Virus record (IMG/VR): IMGVR_UViG_2648501361_000004
Direction: 5' to 3' (one strand)
DNA length: 23,442 nt
Origin: a virus
Taxonomy: Duplodnaviria > Heunggongvirae > Uroviricota > Caudoviricetes
Of the stretch, positions 20,196-23,442 are shown piece after piece. Position 1 is the stretch's first letter; every line of letters starts with the position of its first letter. Both the position numbers and the translations under genes were made by a program. Under the pieces are notes generated by a model. The model worked only from the letters and a program-made list of their open reading frames with translations, was not told where the DNA came from and did not search any database.

Positions 20196-20615
20196 TTATT
20201 TGTATGAAATCAACGAGTTAAGCTCCCTCTCATTTAGAGATTGGAATCTTTTTTCAGTTATATCAATGATGGCTGGCAATAGTTTTTTTACCTTCTCATG
20301 ACCATCAGGTTTAATGATAGCAATGATCTGGATATGAATTGGATATGTGTTGTGTACCGCAAATATCAAAAAGTTATCGCTAACTCTACGATGTATTGGC
20401 GTTGTTCTTAACCAAGGATCATCTACTCCAGGGATCCTGATGTGCGACTTGTAAATTCCCGATAAGACGGCGTGATGGTTTCTCTCAAACCCACCAATCT
20501 TACCAAGATAAGCTGAAACGGTGCCTCTGTTTTTGTAGTTTGCAAGAGCCTTCGCAAAGTATTGTTCTAATGGTCCAGCCGCTGCATCTACAACAATGCT
20601 TATGCGGTTTTCCAT
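20196..20615 (-). CDS. YafO-toxin-like protein (candidate type II toxin / mRNA interferase); family assignment tentative
   Basis: 139 aa; the C-terminal core VSDNFLIFAVHNTYPIHIQIIAIIKPDGHEK resembles, as recalled, the conserved YafO-family core (SD..LVY...LLIAIL.P..H). ATG start lies 16 nt upstream of the preceding gene's stop (coupling). Confidence 0.55.
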   Translation of the reverse strand: MENRISIVVDAAAGPLEQYFAKALANYKNRGTVSAYLGKIGGFERNHHAVLSGIYKSHIRIPGVDDPWLRTTPIHRRVSDNFLIFAVHNTYPIHIQIIAIIKPDGHEKVKKLLPAIIDITEKRFQSLNERELNSLISYK

Positions 20616-21181
20616 TTTGGTGCTTCCATGCCAAATCTTTTATGTGAATCTTCAACTGATTTCTTGAAGGAAGCCAACTCTTCTTCAGTGAACTCTTCAG
20701 GTTCAGCATATGATAGTGGTATGTGCTGCATTGCTAGCGTCACAAGCCCCATTGTTAGCCTTTTGTATTCTATAAAAGTATTGATTGAGTGGTTTTTCAT
20801 TGTTGTAAGAGTTGACATATGGGGCTTCCACGCATCGCTGTTCTCAGCGATGAAGAAGGTATACAACAGTTTCGCGATACCATAATCAAGCTTAGATATC
20901 TGATCGTTCAACATATCTACATCGTCATGTTGAATATTAAGTGAGGAAATATCTTCTTCTGTACCATTACTTAATATGTCAATGAATGTAATGTACTTTT
21001 TGCAAACTTCCTCTACAGGTGACATAACGCAGTAGATCTTGCTAAGAGCTTCAGAAGCCTGTTTTTTAGACAAAGAGCCGCTATGACTGCGATCAAAGTC
21101 TGAAATTGAACGCTCGATAGATGTTGATATGTCAGAAAAAACGTTTTCAATTTTTCCTGGCTCTTGATTCAGGATGGCCAT
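20600..21181 (-). CDS. Hypothetical protein, first gene of the accessory cassette (candidate partner/antitoxin of the YafO-like gene)
   Basis: ORF open 20600..21199 (GTG). ATG at 21181 with upstream AGG is preferred (~193 aa). Predicted helical, acidic protein with no recognised domain. AT-rich codon usage unlike the structural genes. Confidence 0.6.
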   Translation of the reverse strand: MAILNQEPGKIENVFSDISTSIERSISDFDRSHSGSLSKKQASEALSKIYCVMSPVEEVCKKYITFIDILSNGTEEDISSLNIQHDDVDMLNDQISKLDYGIAKLLYTFFIAENSDAWKPHMSTLTTMKNHSINTFIEYKRLTMGLVTLAMQHIPLSYAEPEEFTEEELASFKKSVEDSHKRFGMEAPKWKTA

Positions 21182-21241
21182 AACGCCTATCTCAATCACA
21201 ATGTATACCTTGTTATTTTATATCAACGAACAAACATTGAC

Positions 21242-22280: not shown

Positions 22281-23204
22281 ATGAAAAGTATAGCAACAGC
22301 AGTATCTACTATCAATGTACCATTCCACGGCGCAGAGCTTTATGTTGTCAATCACAACGGCGAACCGTATACCCCAATGAAACCTATCGTTGAGGGAATG
22401 GGGCTAGACTGGAAATCTCAACATAAGAAGATTTCTCAACGATTCTCGAATGGTATGGTGGAAATCACCATACCTTCTGCCGGTGGGGTGCAAGCCATGA
22501 TTTGTATGGCTTTACGAAAATTGGCAGCTTGGTTGAACAGCATCAGTCCTAACAAAGTCCGCCCTGAAATCCGCGACAAGGTAATCCAGTATCAGGAAGA
22601 GTGTGACGATGTGCTCTACGAGTACTGGACTAAAGGCCATGTAGTTAACCCACGCAAAGCTAAAAAGGCGTTGCAGGGTAAAATCACCACTGAACAGCAG
22701 GAAGCCATTAAACAACTCGTCATGAGTCGCGGTCAGTCTCTGCCAAAAGAAAAACAGGCTAAGGCGATGATCACCATGTGGTCGTCACTGAAATCCCATT
22801 TTGGATGTTCGTACAAAGAAATCAGTGAGGAGCAGTTTACCGAAGCACTATCACTTGCAGCTCGAGTTCCACTTGAAGGTGAGTTCATTGGCAAACAAGA
22901 GAAGAAAACCAACGAGCTTTCTGCAAAAGAAGTAAACAGCCTTGTATGGCTATGGGATTATGCCAACCGCTCACAGGCATTATTCCGCGAACTGTATCAG
23001 GCGCTAAAACAAATTCAATCGAACTATTCCGGCAGATGCTACGACTACGGTCATGAATTCTCGTATGTTATCGGAATGGCGAGAGATGTTTTAATCAACC
23101 ATACACGAGATGTTGATATTAATGAGCCAGACGGACCAACGAATCTTTCCGCATGGATGAGACTTAAGAATAAAGAATTACCTCCTTCAGTACATAACTA
23201 CTGA
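22281..23204 (+). CDS. ant: Antirepressor Ant (P22 Ant-like)
   Basis: 307 aa, last gene of the arc operon as in P22 immI, followed by an intrinsic terminator. Identification rests on size, position and general antirepressor N-terminal character. Confidence 0.75.
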   Translation: MKSIATAVSTINVPFHGAELYVVNHNGEPYTPMKPIVEGMGLDWKSQHKKISQRFSNGMVEITIPSAGGVQAMICMALRKLAAWLNSISPNKVRPEIRDKVIQYQEECDDVLYEYWTKGHVVNPRKAKKALQGKITTEQQEAIKQLVMSRGQSLPKEKQAKAMITMWSSLKSHFGCSYKEISEEQFTEALSLAARVPLEGEFIGKQEKKTNELSAKEVNSLVWLWDYANRSQALFRELYQALKQIQSNYSGRCYDYGHEFSYVIGMARDVLINHTRDVDINEPDGPTNLSAWMRLKNKELPPSVHNY

Positions 23205-23222
23205 TAGATAACCAACGCAACG

Positions 23223-23247
23223 ACCCAGCTTCGGCTGGGTTTTTTTA
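23223..23247 (+). terminator. Intrinsic terminator after ant
   Basis: ACCCAGC-TTCG-GCTGGGT hairpin followed by TTTTTTT. Confidence 0.7.
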
Positions 23248-23304
23248 TGCCCAAAATTCACCGTAGCCATGCTTCGGCGATTCCTTGTATCTGGAGCAAA
23301 TTAA

Positions 23305-23315
23305 ATGACAGACAT
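23305..23315 (+). pseudogene. Tailspike gene (P22 gene 9-like) 5' end, interrupted after nt 11 by IS1
   Basis: ATGACAGACAT (Met-Thr-Asp-Ile...) with GGAG RBS 8 nt upstream matches the start of P22-family tailspikes as recalled, at the expected position after ant. The reading frame is then broken by the IS1 inverted repeat. Confidence 0.5.
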
Positions 23316-23442
23316 GGTGATGCTGCCAACTTACTGATTTAGTGTATGATGGTGTTTTTGAGGTGCTCCAGTGGCTTCTGTTTCTATCAGCTGTCCCTCC
23401 TGTTCAGCTACTGACGGGGTGGTGCGTAACGGCAAAAGCACC
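23316..23442 (+). mobile_element. IS1 insertion sequence, left end (continues beyond the window)
   Basis: 23-bp terminal inverted repeat GGTGATGCTGCCAACTTACTGAT at 23316-23338, followed by the canonical IS1 left-end sequence and the insA start. Confidence 0.9.
23371..23442 (+). CDS. insA: IS1 InsA (N-terminal part, truncated by the window end)
   Basis: GTG start at IS1 position 56; translation MASVSISCPSCSATDGVVRNGKST matches InsA. Confidence 0.85.
   Translation, partial: MASVSISCPSCSATDGVVRNGKST

Follow-up and report, generated by a model that had tools for sequence, protein, structure and literature searches.

An IS1 junction 11 nucleotides into the endosialidase tailspike gene of a CUS-3 prophage segment

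The prophage segment and its junction with IS1

The window analyzed here is the whole stretch of 23,442 nucleotides. When the window was compared over its entire length with phage CUS-3 (CP000711.1) by blastn, a single alignment was obtained in which positions 1-23315 correspond to CUS-3 28775-5461 with 100.000% identity, 0 mismatches, and 0 gaps. The homology to CUS-3 stops at 23315, directly after nt 11 of the tailspike gene siaK1. CUS-3 is a P22-like, K1-specific Lederbergvirus that resides as a prophage at argW in E. coli RS218, and the phage plaques on the K1 strain EV36 (PMC10461980). Apart from the interrupted siaK1, the genes of the window do not differ in sequence from those of the CUS-3 record, which annotates them as intact. 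The window comprises a partial ninB, the nin genes, Q, and the lysis, terminase, portal, scaffold, and coat genes, followed by those for the head completion and ejection proteins, the accessory genes, mnt/arc/ant, and the first 11 nt of siaK1. In siblings with identical proteins, the Pfam domains P22_portal, P22_CoatProtein, P22_gp7, Phage_P22_gp16, Arc/Mnt, and P22_AR were identified, and the intact tailspike of the siblings carries Head_binding and endosialidase domains.

The late genes follow the P22-type order, with immI (mnt, arc, ant), a terminator, and then a tailspike gene with a head-binding N terminus. Both the gene order and the ant-terminator-siaK1 junction are the same in the window and in CUS-3. 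The last complete gene ahead of the junction is ant, and the spacer between ant and siaK1 is 101 nt in the CUS-3 record. A clear intrinsic terminator was found within this spacer (23222-23241 followed by a T-run; Table 1), and the records of epsilon34, Emek, and P22-pbi annotate a "terminator" at the corresponding place. The immI region of the window is more elaborate than the mnt-arc-ant arrangement of P22. Between 21242 and 22217, the minus strand carries two ribbon-helix-helix repressor genes, one of 82 aa with Arc and Mnt C-terminal domains and one of 87 aa with Arc only, and on the plus strand ahead of ant there are a 46-aa Arc gene and a 67-aa ORF of no assigned function.

Table 1. Positions in the window of the features around the junction between the CUS-3 segment and IS1
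Feature	Coordinates	Strand	Basis
CUS-3 prophage segment	1..23315	+	100% identity to CP000711.1; gene list per CUS-3 record
ant (antirepressor, 307 aa)	22281..23204	+	P22_AR_N E 1e-45, P22_AR_C E 5e-29; ant in CUS-3 annotation
Intrinsic terminator in the ant/tailspike spacer	23222..23249	+	Terminator scan: 8-bp stem, GC-rich, T-run
siaK1 Shine-Dalgarno GGAG, 8 nt 5' of the ATG	23293..23296	+	Sequence reading
siaK1 first 11 nt (ATGACAGACAT), heading the 10-codon ORF MTDMVMLPTY*	23305..23315	+	CUS-3 annotation, blastn, translation
GACAGACAT, putative left copy of a 9-bp target-site duplication	23307..23315	.	Inferred; required by WP_280136271.1
IS1 nt 1-127 (IS1B/IS1R type), ended by the window edge	23316..23442	+	127/127 to R100 IS1
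IS1 left terminal inverted repeat GGTGATGCTGCCAACTTACTGAT	23316..23338	+	nt 1-23 of the 768-bp R100 element; directly abuts target DNA
insA 5' part, GTG start, VASVSISCPSCSATDGVVRNGKST...	23371..23442	+	R100 transposase CDS start at IS1 nt 56

CUS-3 itself goes on with siaK1 (981 aa), neuO, int, and attL, but in the window IS1 is found instead after siaK1 nt 11. The junction reads ...TCTGGAGCAAATTAA ATGACAGACAT and then GGTGATGCTGCCAACTTACTGAT..., with ATGACAGACAT at 23305-23315, and the last 140 nt of the window are ...TCTGGAGCAAATTAA ATGACAGACAT GGTGATGCTGCCAACTTACTGATTTAGTG.... The intact siaK1 in CUS-3, whose annotated CDS opens ATGACAGACATTACAGCCAATGTG, continues from ATGACAGACAT into TACAGCCAATGTG. 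When 23316-23442 was compared with plasmids, a 127/127 match to IS1 was obtained in more than 5000 plasmid records (E = 8e-60). The IS1 of R100 is 768 bp long and extends from GGTGATGCTGCC... to ...GTTGGAGTCATTACC. The IS1B/IS1R copies that flank the R100 r-determinant match the window over the first 127 of these 768 nt and share the insA start, and the 24 visible insA codons are identical to the start of the annotated IS1B transposase CDS. The insA gene is oriented as siaK1, and a promoter-like site at 23323-23350 overlaps the left inverted repeat. Because the foreign DNA begins at base 1 of the inverted repeat, the boundary is a transposition junction rather than a random chimera. The first-pass annotation had placed IS1 11 nt into the tailspike gene, with the terminal inverted repeat and then the insA start right after the tailspike start. 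This description is borne out in both parts: the identity to CUS-3 ends after siaK1 nt 11 and R100 IS1 nt 1 follows, and the repeat occupies 23316-23338 with the GTG at 23371, which is IS1 nt 56.

The portion of IS1 present in the window is exactly 127 nt. This number is the largest default k-mer of SPAdes, and a de Bruijn contig that passes from unique DNA into a repeat stops one k-mer into the repeat. A short-read assembler therefore probably failed to extend the contig through the repeat, so that the window stops 127 nt into IS1. The absence of the far side would then be an assembly limit, and the stop itself would carry no biological information. In all likelihood, the window represents a complete short-read contig with repeats at both edges. 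Its start (1-140) lies within a mosaic ninB/ninE junction that is common to many lambdoid prophages, and a second repeat edge at this position would be consistent with that location.

The far side of the element

The exact pattern of the left junction gave 0 matches in genome_contigs, metagenome_contigs, and viral_contigs, and 0 matches were likewise obtained in these three collections with a right-junction pattern in which a duplication of 0-20 nt was allowed. By megablast, neither the real left junction nor the modelled right junction was present in 5,426 complete E. coli genomes. The same search returned only unrelated IS1 events in the strains 1070/13 and MLI104K1.

The right junction was modelled as a simple IS1 insertion with the usual 9-bp duplication, GACAGACAT, and with the remainder of siaK1 intact. 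In this model, the element would be flanked by the duplication, with insA in the direction of siaK1, and it would be joined on its far side to GACAGACATTACAGCC.... Across the modelled junction, the siaK1 frame is open from IS1 nt 740 onward and an in-frame TTG occurs at nt 755, so that a gene caller would predict a protein consisting of MESLP followed by SiaK1 residues 2-981. An exact-sequence look-up in NCBI nr identified this predicted protein as WP_280136271.1, a 985-aa "phage tailspike protein [Escherichia coli]" that matches the MESLP-SiaK1 prediction exactly. A second entry, KNX99103.1 / WP_052956553.1, is 970 aa long, starts at Met12, and is otherwise identical to CUS-3 SiaK1; it lies on a 363-kb contig. 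The exact-sequence look-up yielded no entry for products restarting at Val8 (GTG) or at Met19.

The five residues MESLP are explicable only by TTGGAGTCATTACC followed by G, that is, by the right end of IS1 together with a 9-bp duplicate of the target in the window. The existence of WP_280136271.1 thus indicates that the matching right junction, followed by all of the remaining siaK1, is present in at least one sequenced E. coli. The site, the orientation, and the CUS-3-identical sequence are all the same, which makes a common origin of the window and the source of WP_280136271.1 likely, and it is chiefly on this protein that the reading as a simple insertion is based. An intact remainder of siaK1 just past IS1 is strongly indicated for the window as well, because the IS1-derived MESLP start and residues 2-981 are recorded together in this protein.

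Expected effect on the tailspike and alternative readings

We consider it probable that the junction was produced by a single, recent, simple transposition of a 768-bp IS1 into the 5' end of siaK1 in the resident CUS-3 prophage of an E. coli K1 strain. The native Shine-Dalgarno sequence and ATG lead into an ORF of 10 codons (MTDMVMLPTY and a stop), and the 768 bp of IS1 would lie between this native ribosome-binding site with its ATG and the body of siaK1. The tailspike gene of P22-type phages is late and is transcribed by Q/gp23-antiterminated transcription through the ant terminator. The antiterminated late polymerase probably reads through IS1 too, so the distal part of siaK1 is likely to be transcribed. 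The sole in-frame start ahead of residue 2 is the TTG in the right end of IS1, in the context TAAAACACTATCAATAAG TTG, or ...CACTATCAATAAG TTG as it is also given for the modelled junction. Because this TTG is not preceded by a Shine-Dalgarno sequence, the tailspike is expected to be produced at a very low level, if at all.

The tailspike is the receptor-binding and capsule-cleaving protein. It is also the last component that is added to virions of the P22/Sf6 type (PMC9728967). An induced lysogen would lyse and would shed DNA-filled particles without tailspikes, and such particles could neither bind nor cut polysialic acid and would be non-infectious. The repressor, immI, and the lysis genes are unaltered, and neuO, which lies ~3 kb further on with its own promoter region, would presumably be unaffected. 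Because the rest of the window is identical to plaque-forming CUS-3, siaK1 would be the sole defect in this part of the prophage. A tail-defective prophage is thus a reasonable reading of the locus.

A comparable phenotype is known from P22, where gene 9 mutants produce filled heads that lack the last-added part and do not adsorb, and the same phenotype would be expected here. In classical work by Israel, Anderson, and Levine, P22 heads without tailspike reportedly became infectious once purified tailspike was added. The lesion in the window is an IS insertion at codon 4, in contrast to the nonsense mutation of P22 gene 9, and a low-level restart is conceivable.

Such a restart is one of several ways in which a simple insertion could still be accompanied by some infectious particles. 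They might arise from a TTG-started MESLP-SiaK1 made on antiterminated late transcripts, from a second, intact siaK1 at another place in the genome, or from precise excision of IS1 in a subpopulation. The in-frame TTG and the open frame across the modelled right junction would permit a fusion, the NCBI pipeline names the 985-aa product a tailspike protein, and even a low level of the MESLP-SiaK1 fusion might still assemble. The 9-bp direct repeats would permit rare precise excision of the element. Furthermore, some K1 strains, such as CE10, have CUS-3-like elements at two sites (PMC9659370). However, TTG is a weak start codon and has no Shine-Dalgarno sequence here, and the N-terminal extension may disturb the head-binding interface, because residues 4-16 at the extreme N terminus of the Sf6 tailspike take part in an asymmetric head-binding interface (PMC9728967). 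There is also no sign of a second siaK1 copy within the window. We regard residual infectivity as unlikely.

Alternatively, IS1 could mark a rearrangement. The element might have deleted or inverted neighboring DNA, either after its insertion or by intramolecular transposition, or it might belong to a composite transposon as one of its arms. The DNA past IS1 would then be something other than the remainder of siaK1, and siaK1, neuO, and int could have been displaced or lost. The window stops inside IS1, and two complete genomes contain IS1-bounded deletions at this spot in P22-like prophages. In MLI104K1 (NZ_CP116923.1; L010 5383-6150), the dsdX-argW locus consists of a truncated dsdX, IS1, a tailspike gene, two hypothetical genes, intS, and tRNA-Arg. 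Here, IS1 is oriented as it is in the window and is inserted ~30 nt into another P22-type tailspike allele, but all DNA on the side of the left repeat up to dsdX is deleted, whereas the window retains that side. In the annotation of MLI104K1, too, the tailspike CDS has its start within the IS1 right end. In 1070/13 (NZ_CP171474.1; L002 5001-6141), IS1 lies within ant of another P22-like prophage, again oriented as in the window, and an IS1-bounded deletion joins early-left genes (cIII, kil, erf ...) to 'ant-tailspike-acyltransferase-intS. The left-repeat side of IS1 is deleted in this strain and the insertion point is inside ant, in contrast to the window, where the insertion is at siaK1 nt 11 and nothing is deleted on that side. 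In both known deletions, the tailspike side has been kept, and the left-repeat side of the window is untouched prophage. WP_280136271.1, moreover, needs an undisturbed right junction and a full-length siaK1. A rearrangement is therefore unlikely, though not negligible, and the window may represent the stage that precedes deletions of the MLI104K1 and 1070/13 type. An artefact of assembly or sequencing, in which a chimeric contig conceals a prophage that is intact in the cell, is very improbable. The junction is situated at the extreme end of an apparent short-read contig and was not matched in any of the DNA collections searched, but a random chimera would start at exactly IS1 nt 1 in only about 1 in 768 cases, a false join at k = 127 would require a shared 126-mer, and the matching right junction is independently recorded as a RefSeq protein, WP_280136271.1.

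Prophage decay, exclusion genes, and significance

The lesion can be compared with those in related prophages. The exact Ant protein is present in ~2,300 blocks of the assembly collection, and 29 long contigs were read. In most of these 29 contigs siaK1 is intact. In GCA_053711215.1 (L007, 7524-8781), an IS3 element of 1,258 bp with a 3-bp CAG duplication is independently inserted at siaK1 nt ~499, and there are two similar cases besides. In GCA_964045115.1 (L006, ~8790), a 2-nt deletion at siaK1 nt 1766-1767, outside a homopolymer, changes GATAATGTAG to GATAGTAG and divides siaK1 into ORFs of 592 aa and 398 aa; six similar cases were found besides. The neuO heptanucleotide repeat region is shorter at the L006 locus as well.

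A parallel sample of siblings was anchored on the coat protein and read in the same style. One of its members has a split gene for the large terminase (L013, 4912-6798), and in another (L014, 4882-6683 and 16563-18725) an IS21-type element (IstA/IstB) separates the terminase gene from the portal gene and the gp16 gene is in three pieces. These terminase, gp16, and IS21 lesions indicate that decay of CUS-3-like prophages strikes several late genes. Given the terminase, gp16, and IS21 lesions of the coat-anchored sample, there is no evidence in these small samples, whose members are not independent of each other in phylogeny, that decay favors siaK1. The 90% cluster of SiaK1 also contains endosialidases of 1,039 aa (P0005/P0011) with a quite different N terminus, MTVSTEVDHNEYTGNG.... 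In other prophages of E. coli, the endosialidase body is thus fused to a different virion-attachment module.

CUS-3-like prophages that are in decay yet retain neuO have been described (PMC9659370). They belong to the same family and occupy the same locus, and when a virion gene is lost the lysogenic-conversion cargo may stay. In contrast to these decaying siblings, the window has one lesion and no other change, and thus represents at most a first step of decay. Both partners of the junction are known sequences, and it is already known that IS strikes on the virion genes of a prophage are a textbook first step of decay; they have been noted for CUS-3-like elements.

The first-pass annotation had also read the locus as a domestication-like state that keeps an exclusion module. 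This part of its reading is not supported, as there are 0 differences from CUS-3 over 23,315 nt and no sieA-type gene is present. A domesticated prophage, with several lesions and its host-beneficial genes kept, was rejected as a description because IS1 is the only change relative to CUS-3. The lack of any other difference in 23,315 nt points to a single, very recent event and not to a state that has been maintained for long. Among the ORFs between gene 16 and mnt, neither a SieA-like gene nor an exclusion gene recognized by PADLOC was found with Pfam and PADLOC. These ORFs encode a coiled-coil protein of 107 aa, a YafO-toxin-like protein of 139 aa, and a protein of 199 aa with no recognized domain. 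Homologues of sieA have been reported only from P22-like phages of Salmonella (PMC10461980).

The interval between gene 16 and mnt, which is the position of sieA in P22, is occupied by the YafO-like ORF and its neighbor. The 139-aa ORF (20196-20615, minus strand) matches the Pfam family YafO_toxin with an E value of 3e-11. Upstream of it and overlapping it by 16 nt is the 199-aa ORF (20600-21199, minus strand), which has no Pfam domain and no significant PADLOC match. The pair could be toxin-antitoxin or abortive-infection cargo of CUS-3. In some related prophages (L012), a YafO-like ORF is accompanied by a 188-aa partner and the orientation is reversed. The documented exclusion and conversion gene of CUS-3 is neuO, which is situated 3' of siaK1 in the CUS-3 record and hence beyond the window. 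NeuO is a phase-variable polysialic acid O-acetyltransferase that lowers the susceptibility to K1 phages (PMC13001214, PMC9659370). The gene has its own promoter region (PMC9659370), and its expression should be independent of siaK1.

That the loss of siaK1 was selected rather than neutral is an attractive idea, but the small, non-independent samples speak neither for nor against it, and we think it quite improbable. If CUS-3 were induced spontaneously in a few cells, free endosialidase would be released and would remove the protective K1 capsule of sibling cells, and lineages without siaK1 but with neuO and immunity would then fare better in the host. The IS1 at nt 11, the IS3 at nt ~499, and the 2-nt deletion at nt 1766 would in that case be parallel adaptive events. 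An excess of lesions in siaK1 over the remaining late genes among K1 lineages would suggest that an enzyme which degrades the capsule is selected against in a pathogen that depends on being encapsulated.

For the simple IS1 insertion that we prefer, the significance is mostly confined to the strain. An annotation pipeline that starts the interrupted gene at the TTG of IS1 may report an intact "phage tailspike protein", and the lesion would thereby be hidden. The strain would probably shed neither infectious K1-specific phage nor free endosialidase, and O-acetylation of the capsule by neuO, which affects resistance to phages and to neutrophils, should continue.
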